Shown: positions 40,400 to 47,966, numbered from the stretch's first letter. The stretch: DNA of 64,000 bases from an uncultured Methanosarcinales archaeon (GCA_964564925.1 CAZMBY010000001.1:37929-101928); one strand, 5' to 3'. The notes: generated by a model not told the origin, from the sequence alone. Program-made: numbers and translations.

Positions 40400-43300
40400 T
40401 TAATATTCCCCTTTTCTCTTTTGCCAAGCAAAGTAGCCAATACCTGCCGCTACAACAATTAACAAGACTACAATCCATCCCATTGATGTCCTGCTTAATC
40501 CTCCCTCTGGTGCAACTGCTGTTGGTGTGGATGGTTGTGCTGTTGGAGGCTGCTCTGTTGGTGTAGTTGGAGGCTGCTCTGTTGGCGGCTGTGTAGTTGG
40601 AGGCTGCTCTGTTGGAGCTGCTTCTTTAGTTCCTATGGCAAATGTGCTTGTTCCTGGTGATGTTGATTGATAGCTGACATAATCTGCATCGCTTCCTGAC
40701 TTGGTTGTTGGCAATGGGTTCCACTGGCCATCGCTGTACCTGTACAGCACTATATCATCTTCAGAAGCCCCATTGCTTACCAGCCATGATTTTGGCACTC
40801 TGAAGTTAATTGTTGTGCTTGACGTGTCTAAATCTGCAAAATTGCTCTTTGTTATCTGCAGGTATTGGAATACTTTTGCTGCTGCAGCTGTTGAATATGG
40901 ATTTGCTTTCAGGCTATCCACACTTAATGATGGGTTTGAAACAGCATTAGCAATTCCGATTATTACTGCAGTAAAGGCTATATTCTGGTTGTTGATAGTT
41001 AAAGTTGCTGTTGAGCCTGCAGCTAACTGGTCCCATACTCTACCGACATTTGCTTCTACATTGCTTACCACTCCTCCTCCGCCTCCTCCCCCACCGCCGC
41101 TACTGCTTGAGGAGCTTGAGCTTGAAGAAGAAGCTGCTGAGCTTGTACTAAAGTTAAATGTTCCGTTCTTAGCGCAGTTTCCATTGTTGTCGCATATTGT
41201 TACGTTGAAATGGTATGTTGTAGAGGCAGTTAGTCCAGTTATTTCTACATCCTGTGAGGCATTAAAATCAGTTTGCATGGCAGCAACAGTATTAACTATT
41301 GCCCCTACTGAAGTGCCATAGTACACTGTTGCATTTACCGATTCATTGATGCCGCTTATTGTAATTGTAGCTGTTGTTGTGCCGCCGCTTGCTGAAACTG
41401 CAGTTAGATTCGGCACGTTTGGAGCTGCAGTGTCTGAAACGTTGAACTGCCACAAGTAATTGTTAACGTTGCTATCCGAGTCAGTAACCGTGAAGGTAAT
41501 ATTGAATAGGTTGTCTCCACCAGCATTATTTATTGTATTATTAAACCTCTCGGTTGAGCCAAGGCATATTCCGCTGCTCAAAGTCATTGTTTTGTTGGAA
41601 ACAGACGAGTTTATTGAGTATTTGCAACTTATGGCGTCTGCTGTTACTGATATGTTTGGAACAAACATGCCTACTAACTGGTCTAAAGCTGGTGTTGTGA
41701 CATTTACCAATGGGATTGCTGAATTGTTCACAAACCCTAATCCACTGAAATGGGGCAAATATACCCTTATCGAGCTGTTGTCTGTGTAATTCCAGCAGGC
41801 TGAAGCAGTAAAGCTTGGACTAAATCCTGCTGCGCATTCAGACAAGTTACTCTCTGCGGTGACATCATCAATGTCCGGGAAATACCATAATTCGAATTTG
41901 CCACCAATCTCGTATTGGCTCGCATTGTTAATCCTGTAATTTATTATTCCATAATATGAATTATTGTTGGGGAGGAAATCGTGAATTGTCTTATCAAACC
42001 ATATAAGCTCCTGAACTTCTGAAGTAAAGTTATTGTTTATTTGAGTCATTGTAAGCGAATTATTCATCAGGAAAGTAAAGTTCCTGTCCCAGTTTGCAGC
42101 GGAACCGTTAAATACAACAGTAACATTGTCTATTCTCTGCGAGCCGTTCATGTCCATAAACAGTTTCCAGGTCGAGTCATTAACAACCCTAAAACTGTTG
42201 CTTCCATTATTTAATGTTTCACCTGAAGCATCAGTCAAGTTGACAAAAGATATATTAGTATTGGTAACAAGCAACGATGTATTCACATAGTCTGAAAAGT
42301 TCAGAGGACCTGTTATTGTGAAAGTCAATTGGGTTGCATTTACTACATTACCTAAAGAATCATTCGCTGTCAGCTTTAGCGTATGGGTTCCGGGCGTGAA
42401 GAAGAACCACGTGCTGTTGCCATAAGTGTTATTGACACCTTGGCCGCCTGTGCCTCCTGATGTGCTTGTGTTTATTGCAATCGGTGCAGATACATTGTCA
42501 AGGTAATAACCTACAAAGGATATAGAACTGTCTTGGTCAATTGCTGAGAAATTTATTGATACGTTGCTGTTCGTAAAGGATTGTCCATTTGTTGGTGCGT
42601 AAACATAAATTGAAGGAGCCACATTATCAACAAGGAATCCAAATGTTGTTGCATTTGAGTTTCCTGCTGTGTCTGTTACAGTTACTTTTAACGACCTATT
42701 GCCCGATGTTGTTGGGCATGTTGATGCATTGAATGGGAATACCACAGTGTTGTTTTGGAAATAAACTGTTGTGCTTGAATCACAACTCGAAACATAAGAT
42801 AGGTTAGCGACACTTGCTCCTGATCCAGCAATTCCAAGCCCATAAAACCCAAGTCCCTTAACATTGTCTCTTAATATGCTTGAAGTCAGGTTTGTCTCAT
42901 TTACAGCAGCGGTAGTAATAAGATTATTGGCAGTTACGTTGCTAAAGTTTAATGCTGGAACGCCTCCGCTTTGAACCGTGAAAGTGTGATTTCTGGCTTC
43001 AATATTTCCCCATGTATCTCTTGTTTGTACTAAGATGAAGTGTGACCCATTTACCAATGTGCATGATGGATCGTTTGTTGGTGTGAATGAGCTATTTCTA
43101 AAGGCATCTGCGTTGCCATCAGAAGCGCTTGCGGTTGTAAATCTCTTGAACTTGTTGCAGCCAACTAACACCCCATCAAGGCTGACGTTGATTTCTGCCA
43201 TGCCGCTTGTTTCAATTACAGACCAGCTTACCAATGGCAATGTGGCTGTTGAACCTGTTAGATTAGAGCCGTTTACTGAAACTGTCCCATTGATTGTTAT

Positions 43301-44647
43301 AGCTGACTTTGTCGTATCATTGATGTTCACAGTGATGTTTCGTGCTGCGCCAGATTCATGAGAGGCATTAGTATTTCTATTGCCAAGCGTGTCATTAACT
43401 AATATTCTAAAGGTTATATTCTTGCCTTCAAATTCATTGCGGCCTTTTGAGGGCATGAAACTGAAATTAATACTTGCATTGGTATTTGTTCCAGCATTTG
43501 TTATATTACCCGATATATAATTATTTGTGGTATTTACAGTCTGCCAAGAATTAGCAGTTACATTAAAGAACTGCAAGTCTGCATGGGACGGTTGTGTCAA
43601 GTTATCAGTAAAATTTGCTAATACAAAGATTCTTTTGCCTTGCGCGCCTGAGCCTCCACTAGTCTGCACATCTGATGGCGCACTTGCACCATATCTATCA
43701 CAATAAGACTCTATTGCTGAGGAGCCTGTTTCATTAGTGCAAATAGTGAGATTAACGACATATGGTGGTATCTGGTCAACTGTGACTCGTGATGAAATGC
43801 CTGTGCTATAGGTGCCAAGAGCGTCCATTGCCGATATGTTTAATAGATATGTTCCGTTGCTAGTGAAACTCCTATAAGTAGCATTACAGGTTGTGGCAGC
43901 AGTGCTGATATCACCATTTGTCGCTGAACAGCTTAAGTTGGTTGTATCGCTTCGGTTTATATAGGTGAAAATCCTCACTTGCGCTCCGCCATAGAATATG
44001 GATAGGTTAATAGAATTATTTATAGTCATATTCAACCCTTGCCCAGAATCATTAACTTTGAATTGTATCGATAAAACCTCTGTTGAAGAGGAAGTGTTCA
44101 AGGATGAATTAACTGTTTGATCAGGGACTGTAAAGTTGAATTGTGGCGCGGATGAATCAAGGAAAAAAGTCAAGTTTGTGCTATTAAAGAACAAATCAAC
44201 TTGCGTGCCATTAGAGCTATTAAGGCAGCCAATGTTCCAAGTAAAGTTGCCATTTGTGCTGAATGTGTAGTTAATGTAGCTTATACTGTTATTAATAATG
44301 CCATCAGTATTTGCATTAATTCCTGTCCCATTTGTTCTGTTTGCTGCACCAACCCAGCCGTTATTTCCATTGAAACCACTGATAGCACTTGTTGTATTGA
44401 TGTACAATGTACAATTCGACTGATTTTCAGAGGCACGATCCCAAGTTACATTAAATGTGAAATTTACGTTCCTGCCGATAGAATTATTATAAGTATTGTT
44501 CAATGGCGCTAGCAATTTTATTGACATTGCTTGAGTATAGAAAACAGTCATTAAGAAAATCAGAGCTATGCATAAAAACAGCGCAGTATTCACTTTCGCA
44601 TCTTTAGAATTAACTATAGCGCTAAAACCCTCTTTTTTCATTATCAC
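40400..44647 (-). CDS. Giant (1415 aa) S-layer-like surface glycoprotein with signal peptide, N/T/S-rich beta-rich ectodomain, poly-Ser/poly-Gly spacer, Pro/Thr/Gln-rich repeat stalk and C-terminal TM anchor
   Basis: Signal 'ALFLCIALIFLMTVFYTQA', very dense N-x-S/T sequons, and '…SSSSSSSSSSSSGGGGGGGGG…'. The stalk repeats 'PTEQPPTTQPPTEQPPTTPTEQPPTAQPSTPT' (27-nt DNA repeats ~40500-40620). C-terminal 'MGWIVVLLIVVAAGIGYFAWQKRKGEY'. Confidence 0.85.
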   Translation of the reverse strand: MIMKKEGFSAIVNSKDAKVNTALFLCIALIFLMTVFYTQAMSIKLLAPLNNTYNNSIGRNVNFTFNVTWDRASENQSNCTLYINTTSAISGFNGNNGWVGAANRTNGTGINANTDGIINNSISYINYTFSTNGNFTWNIGCLNSSNGTQVDLFFNSTNLTFFLDSSAPQFNFTVPDQTVNSSLNTSSSTEVLSIQFKVNDSGQGLNMTINNSINLSIFYGGAQVRIFTYINRSDTTNLSCSATNGDISTAATTCNATYRSFTSNGTYLLNISAMDALGTYSTGISSRVTVDQIPPYVVNLTICTNETGSSAIESYCDRYGASAPSDVQTSGGSGAQGKRIFVLANFTDNLTQPSHADLQFFNVTANSWQTVNTTNNYISGNITNAGTNTNASINFSFMPSKGRNEFEGKNITFRILVNDTLGNRNTNASHESGAARNITVNINDTTKSAITINGTVSVNGSNLTGSTATLPLVSWSVIETSGMAEINVSLDGVLVGCNKFKRFTTASASDGNADAFRNSSFTPTNDPSCTLVNGSHFILVQTRDTWGNIEARNHTFTVQSGGVPALNFSNVTANNLITTAAVNETNLTSSILRDNVKGLGFYGLGIAGSGASVANLSYVSSCDSSTTVYFQNNTVVFPFNASTCPTTSGNRSLKVTVTDTAGNSNATTFGFLVDNVAPSIYVYAPTNGQSFTNSNVSINFSAIDQDSSISFVGYYLDNVSAPIAINTSTSGGTGGQGVNNTYGNSTWFFFTPGTHTLKLTANDSLGNVVNATQLTFTITGPLNFSDYVNTSLLVTNTNISFVNLTDASGETLNNGSNSFRVVNDSTWKLFMDMNGSQRIDNVTVVFNGSAANWDRNFTFLMNNSLTMTQINNNFTSEVQELIWFDKTIHDFLPNNNSYYGIINYRINNASQYEIGGKFELWYFPDIDDVTAESNLSECAAGFSPSFTASACWNYTDNSSIRVYLPHFSGLGFVNNSAIPLVNVTTPALDQLVGMFVPNISVTADAISCKYSINSSVSNKTMTLSSGICLGSTERFNNTINNAGGDNLFNITFTVTDSDSNVNNYLWQFNVSDTAAPNVPNLTAVSASGGTTTATITISGINESVNATVYYGTSVGAIVNTVAAMQTDFNASQDVEITGLTASTTYHFNVTICDNNGNCAKNGTFNFSTSSAASSSSSSSSSSSGGGGGGGGGVVSNVEANVGRVWDQLAAGSTATLTINNQNIAFTAVIIGIANAVSNPSLSVDSLKANPYSTAAAAKVFQYLQITKSNFADLDTSSTTINFRVPKSWLVSNGASEDDIVLYRYSDGQWNPLPTTKSGSDADYVSYQSTSPGTSTFAIGTKEAAPTEQPPTTQPPTEQPPTTPTEQPPTAQPSTPTAVAPEGGLSRTSMGWIVVLLIVVAAGIGYFAWQKRKGEY

Positions 44648-45164: not shown

Positions 45165-45309
45165 TTTTTTTGTATATTTTATTTTTGAATTTGTTATTGA
45201 ATAAAATTTATTGATTAAGCAAAGTCTACGATGAATAAATTCAATATGCTATACGTTTAAAAAAACAATAATCTTTAAATAACGAGAATAAAAACTATGT
45301 TACCATATC

Positions 45310-45499
45310 GGGGATGTAGTACAATCTGGCCAGTATAGCCGCCTCCAGTTCATCTGGAAATCTGAGCTGGTGATATGCGAGTGAGCTCGTGCAAACTCGC
45401 TCACAGATGCACAGCGATGAAATGATTAAGGCGATAGCGGCTGATTTTCAGTGGAATCACTCAAAAGCCGAAATTAGGGTTCAAATCCCTACATCCCCA
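45310..45499 (+). tRNA. tRNA-Trp (anticodon CCA at 45345-45347) interrupted by long intron sequence (~115 nt total; one long or two introns)
   Basis: Acceptor GGGGATG(45310-16)/CATCCCC(45492-98), discriminator A. D-arm GTAC/GTAT with loop AATCTGGCCA. Anticodon stem 5' GCCGC(45338-42), loop CTCCAG. T-arm TAGGG-TTCAAAT-CCCTA (45475-91). The 3' anticodon-stem partner GCGGC is at 45437-41, so the intron follows G37 (45348). A further ~28 extra nt lie before the T-arm. A T-rich terminator follows. Confidence 0.7.
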
Positions 45500-45512
45500 C
45501 TTTTTATTTTTT
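45500..45512 (+). terminator. T-rich archaeal-type terminator after tRNA
   Basis: 'ctttttatttttt' immediately 3' of the discriminator base. Confidence 0.4.
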
Positions 45513-45566
45513 ACTCATTAACTTTATTGAAGTTCTAAAGAATTAAAAAAATCAAGAAAAAATAAT

Positions 45567-47966
45567 CTAATAGTAAGCTTCCCCTTCTGTCTGGTCCGGG
45601 ATCTCTTCGCTGAATTCTTCGCTTGGCTCCAGCCATTTCTTTATGCCAAAAGCAAGCCCAATCCCGGCAAGCAATACTGCGATGCCTATCAGGGTTATTT
45701 CTAGGATGTTTTTAAGGCTGGCATTCAAAAATGCGCTTGACGCTACATTTCCCTTGAGCGCAATATCCTTCAGCACTTTATCATTGCTTTTTATTGTAAC
45801 AAGGAAAATCTGCTCGCCTTTCACTTTTGCAGTTGTTGACGCGAATATATTGATTGCTTTTGTTTCTTTTGGCCTTATGACAAACGTGTTTGAGTCGCTT
45901 AATCTTAAGCTGGCCCAGTCTGCCCCGTCCAGCAATACAGTATAAGCATTGGCATCAGGCCCCTGGTTTGTCAGCATCAAGGTGTATATGACTTCGCTGC
46001 CGTCATTACGCATGTCCTGCTTAAGTATCGGGACATTTATCAAAAGCTTGTCATTGACCACTTGCTTTGTCTGGTCATCCGTTCCTGTAACTAGTATAGG
46101 CATTTCTTTTGTTTCGCTTTCGCTTCCGAATTGGGACATTATTTCTGATCTCAATGTGTATGTGCCTGTTTGGGCATCATCAGGGATTTTGAGGACAAAA
46201 TCTTCCTCTATTTCGGATTTCTTTCCTTTGTTTGCAAGCTGGTCAGCAAACCTTGTTGCTGAAACTCCAAGCTCTGGAATGCTTACCTCTGCCCTTATCC
46301 CTTCAAGCGGAACCACACCGCTGTTCTTGAACCTTAAGCTCACGACAAGGCTTTTGCCTGCTGCCACATTATCTTCAGGCATTAGCATCAAGCTGCTTAT
46401 TACAAATGGGAATTCCTTCTGGCTTATCTTCAATCCATATACTTTCTCTTCAAAGTCGCCTTCGGCATCGACAACTTTAACTCTGAGCTTGAAGCTATTC
46501 TGCTCAAAAGGCCCGATCAATGGCAGCTCAAGCTTCTTTAATGTGCTCTCGTCTTTGCCCATATCAAAAGTTGTTGTCGCATCTGCAACCACATCGCCGT
46601 TTTCAAAGGCCAAAACAGCGTCTATGTGGGCATTCTCAACATTTTCAAGCGCTGTCAGCCTTACCCTCAATCCAATTTCTTTTTCGCCTTCTCCAATTAC
46701 AAGAAAATTATTTTCGTCTGCCGCCAATATCTTGCTTTCCACCTCGACACTGTCAACAGAAACGTCCAATGCTCTTCCGGCTGCTCCGCTAACTAGATTT
46801 CTGCCGTTCATTGTGAGCCCGTATATCTGCTTTATTGAGGTGCCTTCTGCATCCACAATCTTTATCGTTAATTCAAAGGAATTGCTCTGCTTCAGCTTAT
46901 TTATCAATTCAAGCGTCAAAAGCCTAGAGTCGCTTGTGTCTTCATCCATATCAAAATTTGGAGAAGCATCGGCTATAACAGCACCGCTCTTGAGGTCTTT
47001 TAAAACTGCCTCGACATGCGCATCTTCCAAATCTTCCAGAGTTGTGAACTCTACAAGGACATCAAATTCGTTGTCTTCATCAATAAAATTTGTCTTCGAT
47101 TCTGCAACTACTTTACTATTGACTTTCACCCTGTCTATTGAGACATCCAATCCTGTTCTTGCTGCTGAAGAGTCTGTTGCCAATCCATATGCTTTCTGCT
47201 CAACATTGCCCTCTGCATCAATAATCTTTATTGTCAAGCTAAAGCTGCCTTCCCTCTTAAGGTCGTCGATAAGCCTTAAAGTCAAAGTTGCAGATGATTT
47301 CTTGTCATTGCCCAAATCAAAAGTTGCTGTCGCATCAGAAACAACCTTGCCGCTGCTTTTTCCCTGAAGGATTGCCTCGACATGCGCATCTTCCAGATCC
47401 TCAAGCGCTGTAAACTCGACTAAGGCAGAGTACACATCAGCATCATCAACAAGGTTTTCTTTTGAGCTTGCAAGAACAACCCCATTTAAAATAACCCTGT
47501 CGATGGATACATCAAAACCATCGCCTTTGACATCATCAAAAGCAATGAAATAGATTTTGCTTTCAAGCTTGCCTTGGTCATTGCCAACTTTGATTTCCAG
47601 CTTGAATCTTTCATCTCCTAGATCGCTGACGTCAAGAAGCAAAAGAGCAGATGTCTTATGGCCATCAAACAAAGTAAAGGGCACTGTGGAATCGGACACC
47701 GTAAGTCCGGTCTTTAAGTCTGTAAGCACAGCATCTACCTTCAGATTCTGCAAGTCTGCAAAAGCAGCCAAGTCAACATATGTGTTGAAGATAAAAGCTT
47801 CAGGGATAAGGTTTGTCTTGCCTTCCGCCAATGTGTGCCTGTTGACCCTGACCTCATCAATTGAAATTTTATCAGAGCCTGACGCTGAGCTTGCATAAGC
47901 GAAGCTAGCAAACAAAGGAATAAGCAAAATCATCAACATTCCTAAACTTAGTATTTTTCTAGTCAT
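45567..47966 (-). CDS. 799-aa surface protein with signal peptide, four ~110-aa internal repeats, and C-terminal TM anchor with acidic tail
   Basis: Signal 'LGMLMILLIPLFASFAYAS'. Repeats 'GLDVSIDRVKVNSKVVAESK.NF.D…FTTLEDLEDAHVEAVL….TIKI.DAEG' occur at least 4 times. C-terminal 'ITLIGIAVLLAGIGLAFGIKKW…EEIPDQTEGEAYY'. Confidence 0.8.
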   Translation of the reverse strand: MTRKILSLGMLMILLIPLFASFAYASSASGSDKISIDEVRVNRHTLAEGKTNLIPEAFIFNTYVDLAAFADLQNLKVDAVLTDLKTGLTVSDSTVPFTLFDGHKTSALLLLDVSDLGDERFKLEIKVGNDQGKLESKIYFIAFDDVKGDGFDVSIDRVILNGVVLASSKENLVDDADVYSALVEFTALEDLEDAHVEAILQGKSSGKVVSDATATFDLGNDKKSSATLTLRLIDDLKREGSFSLTIKIIDAEGNVEQKAYGLATDSSAARTGLDVSIDRVKVNSKVVAESKTNFIDEDNEFDVLVEFTTLEDLEDAHVEAVLKDLKSGAVIADASPNFDMDEDTSDSRLLTLELINKLKQSNSFELTIKIVDAEGTSIKQIYGLTMNGRNLVSGAAGRALDVSVDSVEVESKILAADENNFLVIGEGEKEIGLRVRLTALENVENAHIDAVLAFENGDVVADATTTFDMGKDESTLKKLELPLIGPFEQNSFKLRVKVVDAEGDFEEKVYGLKISQKEFPFVISSLMLMPEDNVAAGKSLVVSLRFKNSGVVPLEGIRAEVSIPELGVSATRFADQLANKGKKSEIEEDFVLKIPDDAQTGTYTLRSEIMSQFGSESETKEMPILVTGTDDQTKQVVNDKLLINVPILKQDMRNDGSEVIYTLMLTNQGPDANAYTVLLDGADWASLRLSDSNTFVIRPKETKAINIFASTTAKVKGEQIFLVTIKSNDKVLKDIALKGNVASSAFLNASLKNILEITLIGIAVLLAGIGLAFGIKKWLEPSEEFSEEIPDQTEGEAYY

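Follow-up and report, generated by a model that had tools for sequence, protein, structure and literature searches.

The closest described counterpart of the locus reported here is the guide borne by the intron of euryarchaeal tRNA-Trp genes, for which Bortolin et al. 2003 reportedly found guide pairing and the splicing-competent bulge-helix-bulge (BHB) motif to be mutually exclusive folds. Box C/D RNPs methylate the nucleotide that is paired five positions upstream of the D or D' box (the N+5 rule), and those of archaea normally use two K-turns. Engineered 'half-mer' box C/D RNAs with one K-turn and one guide have been used in vitro, and we know of no natural substrates for half-guides. In Euryarchaeota, a complete box C/D RNA with guides for Cm34 and Um39 is nested within the tRNA-Trp intron (PMC4090602, PMC11408192, PMC7994747, PMC7714728). 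In Haloferax, both this intron and the methylations that depend on it can be dispensed with, as PMC4090602 relays from Joardar 2008. Among DPANN archaea, Nanoarchaeum equitans encodes fibrillarin, Nop56, and 27 C/D sRNAs, one of which lies in a tRNA-Met intron (PMC3491384). Multi-intron tRNA genes with non-canonical BHB introns have been described in Thermoproteales, ARMAN/Micrarchaeota, other DPANN, and Asgard (PMC4090602, PMC5829648, PMC3239211), and DPANN endonucleases with an L3 loop accompany increased tRNA gene disruption (PMC5829648).

A tRNA-Trp(CCA) gene with two introns

A stretch of archaeal DNA of 64,000 nt (hereafter the window) was analyzed, where a tRNA-Trp(CCA) gene in three exons was found on the plus strand at positions 45310-45499. 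Exon 1 (45310-45348) includes the acceptor 5' strand GGGGAUG (45310-16), the D arm GUAC-AAUCUGGCCA-GUAU, the anticodon-stem 5' strand GCCGC (45338-42), and the 5' part of the anticodon loop, CUCCAG (C32 U33 C34 C35 A36 G37), with the anticodon CCA at 45345-47. Exon 2 (45436-45443) is only 8 nt long and consists of A38, the anticodon-stem 3' strand GCGGC directly after it (positions 39-43, at 45437-41), U44, and G45. Exon 3 (45473-45499) contains A46, U48, the T arm UAGGG-UUCAAAU-CCCUA (45475-91), the acceptor 3' strand CAUCCCC (45492-98), which pairs with GGGGAUG and includes the G1-C72 pair, and the discriminator A73 at 45499, after which no CCA is encoded. The T arm is separated from the anticodon stem by 33 nt in the window versus 4 in relatives. 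When both inserts were removed in silico, a 74-nt sequence was obtained that ARAGORN called tRNA-Trp(CCA), with all junction registers tried, and the acceptor, D, anticodon, and T stems of this spliced tRNA were all intact and paired.

The gene is framed by elements that recur in its relatives. A TATA-box-like element, TTTAAATA, occurs at 45274-45281 on the plus strand, roughly 30 nt before the start of the tRNA, and the same element was found at an equal upstream distance in relatives L001, L022, L031, and L035; it is a putative archaeal promoter element. Downstream of the gene, the sequence reads as a T-rich run, CUUUUUAUUUUUU (45501-45516, plus strand), which likely serves as an archaeal transcription terminator, and the genes of the relatives also end with similar downstream T runs.

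The flanking genes of the window are archaeal and include a DUF192 protein, a geranylgeranyl-reductase-like flavoprotein, and AglB/STT3. The named homologs of the DUF192 protein belong to Woesearchaeota/Nanoarchaeota, and the window was therefore placed in the Woesearchaeota (DPANN). In the nearest syntenic relative, L001, the tRNA-Trp gene lies in the same place downstream of the DUF192 gene, and a tRNA-Trp gene with an insert in the T loop is also present in the P0018 loci (L002-L005), which were found through DUF192 synteny. Two large open reading frames on the minus strand flank the tRNA (40400-44647, 1415 aa; 45567-47966, 799 aa). Both gave only weak Pfam matches, to Ig-like or purple-acid-phosphatase-N domains, and for this reason they probably encode lineage-specific surface proteins. 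Exact-sequence look-ups of two window proteins returned no match.

A search with a 24-nt degenerate exon-1 pattern retrieved 28 Woesearchaeota/Nanoarchaeia genes and three bacterial chance hits, and a narrower pattern yielded 10 further loci from metagenomes. Exon 1 of the window is homologous to the 28 Woesearchaeota tRNA-Trp genes. The relatives (28 genome and 10 metagenome loci) share exon 1, the interrupted loop CUCCAG/A, and the complementary 3' strand, and the roughly 30 distinct homologous genes from Woesearchaeota/Nanoarchaeia are each interrupted after G37 (37/38). Five of the records (L011, L020, L021, L022, and L038) are titled 'uncultured Methanosarcinales archaeon' yet carry the Woesearchaeota-type exon 1 and intron module, which suggests that these bins are mislabeled or contaminated.

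Many relatives contain further inserts in the D loop, T stem, or T loop. An insert of 15-30 nt after A14-A15-N of the D loop brings the number of introns to up to three per gene; it was observed in L001/L029 (3131-3274), L002-L005, L009, L011, L013, L014, L021, L024, L028, and L034, and in L001 it reads GUAU-AAU[GGAUUACAAAAAUCCGUACAU]CCUGGCUA. T-loop inserts directly follow UUCAAAU in L002/L009, L008, L017/L035, L020, L022, L026, L031, and L046/L047, and in L010, L013, L027, and L033 an insert separates the T-stem 5' strand from the T loop (53-54). Because of these T-loop and T-stem inserts, such genes were missed by a search based on acceptor and T-arm closure.

Standard gene finders do not recover the gene in the window. 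Over the entire 64 kb, ARAGORN at default settings reported no tRNA and Rfam at gathering thresholds gave no match; with permissive E-values, Rfam matched solely T-arm fragments to tmRNA/mascRNA models within 45290-45520. Lowering the ARAGORN threshold produced 123 obviously false calls. With introns allowed, ARAGORN returned a single gene for the 64 kb (45310-45500) and called it tRNA-Leu(CAA) with a single 116-nt intron at 45345-45460. The original prediction, which was made from the sequence alone, had named a different anticodon from a tRNA finder as grounds for its rejection, and such a call is formally what was obtained. It is an artefact, since the ARAGORN model permits one intron and the gene has two. 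Although it is the sole ARAGORN model on the unspliced sequence, it leaves an anticodon stem of 4 bp with a C-C mismatch in place of the expected 5 bp, puts the intron before the anticodon, and lacks a long variable arm, which tRNA-Leu requires. Its loop, CUCAAAA, falls within intron 2, where unrelated sequence is found in L032, L044, and L048, and it is missing from L022, L046, and L047, which have no intron 2. In contrast, CUCCAG, the perfectly complementary 3' strand, and A38 are kept in all relatives. The comparative data thus refute the tRNA-Leu(CAA) reading, and the probability left to it is practically negligible.

The identity of the locus as a tRNA-Trp(CCA) gene with two introns is well supported. 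All coordinates given in the original prediction held on re-reading of the sequence, and its assignment to tRNA-Trp(CCA) was borne out by the ARAGORN call on the spliced sequence and by the homologous genes. According to a 2026 preprint, 30 of 123 complete Woesearchaeales genomes lack a tRNA-Trp, for which split genes or loss were considered (10.64898/2026.05.13.725050). Two- or three-intron genes that are invisible to default tools offer a simpler explanation for these 'missing' genes.

Splice motifs and a K-turn in intron 1

Intron 2 comprises 29 nt at position 45/46 (45444-45472, plus strand) and was delineated by its hBHBh' fold and by comparison with L032, L044, and L048. Its 4-bp central helix (H) is formed by CGGC (45438-41) and GCCG (45467-70) and is paired in 100% of cells. 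The two bulges are of 3 nt each, UGA (45442-44) and AAA (45471-73). The inner helix (h') pairs UUUU (45445-48) with AAAA (45463-66) and is extended by AGUG/CACU around a GAAU loop, and the outer helix is short, with G39.U45474 and A38-U45475. Minimum-free-energy (MFE) folding of this region gave essentially this structure. Across the window, L032, L044, and L048, 92% of the cells in the intron-2 helices were paired and five pairs showed compensatory changes, while the slid controls were all far lower, with a collapse of pairing. The variable loop restored by splicing, UGAU, is that of L022, L046, and L047, which lack intron 2 (GCGGU-UGAU-CAGGG). Intron 2 is hence well supported as a near-canonical, near-perfect BHB intron, and it is confined to a small subclade that consists of the window, L032/L043, L044, and L048, all with the same length of 29 nt. 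The original prediction had left the choice between a second, non-canonical intron and an unusual variable region; the data favor a BHB intron at 45/46 and not a variable arm.

Intron 1 comprises 87 nt at the canonical position 37/38 (45349-45435, plus strand), and its removal restores the 7-nt anticodon loop CUCCAGA. The BHB motif at this site is relaxed. The central helix includes C32-G45433, C34-G45431, and C35-G45430 with a mismatch of U33 and C45432, the bulges are A36-G37/U and A-U/A38 (a slash marks the splice site), and the anticodon stem forms the outer helix. An intron at 37/38 was found in every relative, at lengths of 16-87 nt, and the 4-bp central helix contained at least one mismatch in each of them, including the minimal intron of 16 nt. 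Since the motif is mismatched throughout the family, the exact splice sites of intron 1 rest on tRNA homology. As judged from these alignments, the gene family uses relaxed BHB motifs at 37/38, in agreement with the reported L3-loop endonucleases and tRNA gene disruption (PMC5829648). Folding at each junction for BHB motifs, as had been proposed, therefore gave a fit to hBHBh' at 45/46 and, at 37/38, a relaxed motif in which the bulges and the outer helix fit and the central helix has a mismatch.

The central helix of intron 2 uses nucleotides 40-43, and for this reason its BHB motif excludes both the anticodon stem and the BHB motif of intron 1. Such mutually exclusive folds imply sequential folding or an ordered splicing. 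In the proposed sequence of events, a 190-nt precursor would be transcribed, and the archaeal splicing endonuclease would excise both introns at their bulge-helix-bulge motifs.

Within intron 1, a D'-like box, CUGA (45362-45365), forms the non-bulged strand of a predicted K-turn. It is followed by a canonical stem of GCUG (45366-69) and CAGC (45412-15), which encloses a 42-nt hairpin (45366-45415 in total), and by a C'-like box at 45416-45423, where a G (L1) precedes AUGAAAU; all of these elements lie on the plus strand. The A and U that follow the G correspond to L2 and L3, the sheared pairs are G45419.A45365 and A45420.G45364, and these are followed by A45421-U45363. In a box C/D K-turn, a canonical stem and a 3-nt bulge are followed by tandem G.A/A.G pairs, by a pair of the U.U or U-A type, and by one Watson-Crick pair. 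The window agrees with this description in sequence, with the stem GCUG/CAGC, the bulge G-A-U, the tandem G.A/A.G pairs, and a non-canonical stem. The arrangement is of the internal C'/D' type, because the D-type box precedes the C-type box and is linked to it by a hairpin.

A shared plan was recognized in 26 distinct sequences, where a leader of 3-6 nt is followed by UGG(A)(G), 4 nt, NNGA, a hairpin, RAUGA, and a variable tail. The NNGA element is conserved in the relatives with variants such as CUGA, AUGA, and UUGA, among others, and RAUGA is invariant in those that bear the K-turn. The hairpin between the two boxes spans 8-19 nt in relatives and 50 nt in the window. Covariation was evaluated on a loop-trimmed alignment, for the stem of the hairpin and for the pairs that the first two NNGA bases form with the two bases after RAUGA. 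Among the 26 sequences, 96% of the cells in the K-turn stem were paired and 2 of the 3 pairs had changed on both sides. Over the stem and the NNGA pairs, such both-side changes amounted to 30 cells, compared with 9.7 expected by shuffling, a level that was reached in 0 of 500 shuffles, and the covariation score of 0.62 exceeded the slid controls, which scored at most 0.12. In canonical K-turns, the first base of box D (C1) is paired with the sixth of box C (G6); the equivalent positions here, base 1 of NNGA and base 6 of the C'-like box, also covaried (AU in 15 sequences, UA in 6, and CG in 1). A conserved and covarying C'/D'-type K-turn in intron 1 is well supported by these patterns, from which a three-dimensional kink and protein binding are predicted.

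Some close relatives have short introns without the K-turn (16 nt in L040 and 27 nt in L046/L047), as do L019 and L039, and the K-turn is therefore dispensable. The loss of the module in L019, L039, L040, and L046/L047 fits the dispensability of the Haloferax intron as PMC4090602 cites it from Joardar 2008.

The K-turn loop of the window contains an extra 42-nt hairpin (45370-45411, plus strand; core GCGAGU...ACUCGC), which occurs once in the window and is absent from all relatives. It was considered as a third, nested BHB intron. On either strand, however, the flanking bulge sits on the 5' side of the 4-bp helix, which mirrors the layout of a BHB motif, and the insert is probably not a third intron.

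Four C/D-like words had been noticed in this region by the original prediction. Two of them, 'ctgagc' and 'cgatgaa', correspond to the conserved boxes, and the other two, 'ggtgatatg' and 'gctgatt', are not conserved. The latter is not a D box, because it consists of C43-U44-G45 and the first bases of intron 2. Other candidate boxes were also rejected: GUGAUAU (45370-76) as a box C lies, like 'ggtgatatg', within the window-specific 42-nt insert; and AUGAUUA (45422-28), read as a box C followed by a 12-nt guide and CUGA (45441-44) as box D', is not conserved in L022, L032, and L048, while its CUGA is exon and intron-2 sequence.

In a subclade of L013, L014, L017/L035, L026, L033, and L011, a D-box-like CUGA (or UUGA/CCGA) was observed exactly 4 nt upstream of the 3' splice site, with the CUGA form noted in L013, L014, L017, and L026. 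The GA of this box also contributes to the mismatched central BHB helix, in which GAAG faces C32-C35. The intron of L017/L035 starts with UGAUGG, and G37 together with the intron start resembles a box C. Some lineages may thus have a full C/D pair.

The integrity of these elements bears on whether the locus could be a decaying pseudogene, that is, a tRNA-Trp copy that has gathered insertions while the functional tRNA-Trp comes from another locus or from split halves. The unusual length of the intron, with its 42-nt insert found in no relative, would agree with decay, as would the lack of a call by standard tools, and, of this genome, the comparison covers the window. Against such decay, every stem of the spliced tRNA is intact, the intron-2 BHB motif is intact and covarying, the K-turn boxes and stem are preserved around the 42-nt insert, and the promoter and terminator elements are conserved. 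The pattern scan, moreover, gave one such gene per relative genome, all of them interrupted. A pseudogene retains a slim chance at best, and we regard this reading and that of a tRNA-Leu(CAA) as very unlikely.

A candidate guide for C34

Upstream of the D'-like box, the segment CUGGA (45354-45358, plus strand) is complementary to U33-G37, and the resulting anticodon-intron hairpin is present in the MFE fold of the precursor. The partner of C34, G45357, occupies the fifth position ahead of the CUGA box. This distance between the C34 partner and D' was identical in 26 of the 29 distinct K-turn-bearing sequences, and the spacing was one nucleotide longer in the three exceptions (L030, L041, and L042). 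The four spacer bases themselves differ, and the lengths of all other intron segments vary, including the leader (3-6 nt) and the loop (8-50 nt). Methylation of C34 by L7Ae and Nop5-fibrillarin would be the best reading of this fixed N+5 spacing. The guide duplex is short, with 5 bp in cis and 6 bp with the spliced tRNA, compared with the usual length of about 10 bp.

The remaining parts of a complete C/D RNA were not found. No terminal box C was found between the 5' splice site and the guide in intron 1 of the window, and no terminal box D, as a CUGA near 45435, was found in the window or at the intron 3' ends of its closest relatives. No D box follows the 15 nt after the C'-like box that could serve a guide for position 39, and position 39 is a G. 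Between the C'-like box and the exonic CUGA/UUGA (positions 43-46) there are 16-18 nt, a length that is not constant among relatives. The original prediction had suggested that the intron-encoded box C/D guide for C34 and U39 may extend to this lineage. Box C/D-type motifs related to that guide are present in intron 1, in a DPANN lineage. A candidate for the C34 component was found in the expected register, with 5-6 bp of complementarity and a conserved C'/D' K-turn, and a complete C/D RNA was not found; the suggested guide for position 39 was not borne out, the base being G39 rather than U39.

The introns of L008, L012, L016, and L027 (59-87 nt) contain a segment of 7-9 nt that is complementary to the last two intron bases and A38-C43, with CUGA(U/G)GAAG downstream, and its pairing would bury the 3' splice site. 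As a guide for position 39 in these four relatives, the segment was rejected, as there is no D box at the right distance, and the window does not have the segment.

L7Ae is described as universal in archaea (PMC5539422), and it would bind the intron-1 K-turn. Nop5-fibrillarin would then be placed to 2'-O-methylate C34 in the same precursor; alternatively, the target would be C34 of another tRNA-Trp, reached by the excised and probably circularized intron 1. L7Ae binding, C34 methylation, the splicing order, and circularization are all inferred. In a sample of 391 kb, which is too small to be informative, tBLASTn gave no match to fibrillarin or L7Ae, Nop5 was likewise not found, and a strict regular expression identified no stand-alone C/D sRNA.

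The main rival to a methylation guide is that the K-turn would be a structural module that binds L7Ae and takes no part in methylation, with the gene and its introns as described above. It could clamp the long intron so that a weak BHB motif forms, or stabilize the excised circular intron, and the complementarity to the anticodon would then be the ordinary anticodon-intron helix of many pre-tRNAs. The imperfect central BHB helix in all members makes an assisting protein plausible, and the guide duplex of just 5-6 bp and the absence of a second K-turn also agree with a structural role. In many relatives, UGGAG is able to pair with the spacer that follows the C'-like box (by eye, in L013 and L017 for example), which would close the intron into a hairpin, and L7Ae binds many K-turns outside C/D RNAs in archaea (PMC5539422). 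However, a purely structural role leaves unexplained why the C34-partner-to-D' distance is exactly N+5 while the other intron lengths vary, and relatives with introns of 16-27 nt splice without a K-turn despite the mismatched helix, which argues that the K-turn is not needed for the BHB motif. A structural module is accordingly considered unlikely, with perhaps a minor share of the probability.

The guide reading is thus preferred over a structural module. Taken as a whole, the locus is probably a two-intron, BHB-spliced tRNA-Trp(CCA) gene of Woesearchaeota, in which a C'/D' K-turn in intron 1 would guide 2'-O-methylation of C34 and no guide for position 39 is present. The further proposal that intron 1 forms a natural minimal 'half' box C/D RNP, in which a single K-turn and one cis guide of 5-6 bp alone direct fibrillarin to C34, is advanced tentatively, as an idea that we would not yet back over its negation.

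If true, such a half RNP works without the second K-turn that has been thought necessary for the architecture of archaeal C/D RNPs, and three folds of a single precursor, each of which excludes the others, set the order of methylation and the two splicing events. The precursor is a compact test case for ordered folding, since three structures compete for shared nucleotides, namely the guide hairpin, the splice motif of intron 2, and the anticodon stem together with the splice motif of intron 1. A guide for the wobble base of tRNA-Trp that is borne by its intron has so far been described for Euryarchaeota, and the window would provide a conserved, reduced counterpart from DPANN, with its methylation predicted from the guide register. 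Such a counterpart bears on the age of the arrangement and on the minimal RNA for a C/D-type guide.

Comparison with known systems

The intron-1 module may be viewed as a one-sided or 'half-mer' relative of the guide in euryarchaeal tRNA-Trp introns, as represented by the 103-nt intron of Haloferax volcanii and by Pyrococcus sR50 (general system in PMC4090602, PMC7994747, PMC7714728). The two share the host gene and the 37/38 site, a K-turn of CUGA-type and UGAUGA-type boxes, a D'-side guide on the anticodon with C34 as the N+5 target, which in the window is a candidate guide, and the reported mutual exclusion of guide pairing and a splicing-competent BHB motif. They differ in that the window intron has an internal C'/D'-type K-turn only, with terminal boxes C and D absent. 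It also has no D guide, carries G39 and not U39, and forms a duplex of 5-6 bp. In addition, the window belongs to DPANN (Woesearchaeota), contains a 42-nt extra hairpin in the K-turn loop, and has a second intron.

As a multi-intron tRNA gene, the locus is not unusual in kind: the described genes also combine several introns, include short hBHBh' introns outside the anticodon loop, and are missed by standard finders. The difference is that the 45/46 central helix of the window uses the anticodon-stem 3' strand. The sRNA in the tRNA-Met intron of Nanoarchaeum equitans is likewise a stable C/D-like RNA from a DPANN archaeon within a long intron (66 nt; PMC3491384). Compared by description, it resides in a different tRNA and has a box C and a box D, whereas the window has a lone C'/D' K-turn. 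The engineered 'half-mer' RNAs are artificial, while the intron-1 module would be natural, conserved, and cis-acting. Multi-intron tRNAs and the tRNA-Trp intron guide were thus already known, and their combination in Woesearchaeota is new. Two other features are also new: the module is reduced to one conserved K-turn and a cis guide of very short length, and the splice motif of the 45/46 intron is in competition with the anticodon stem.
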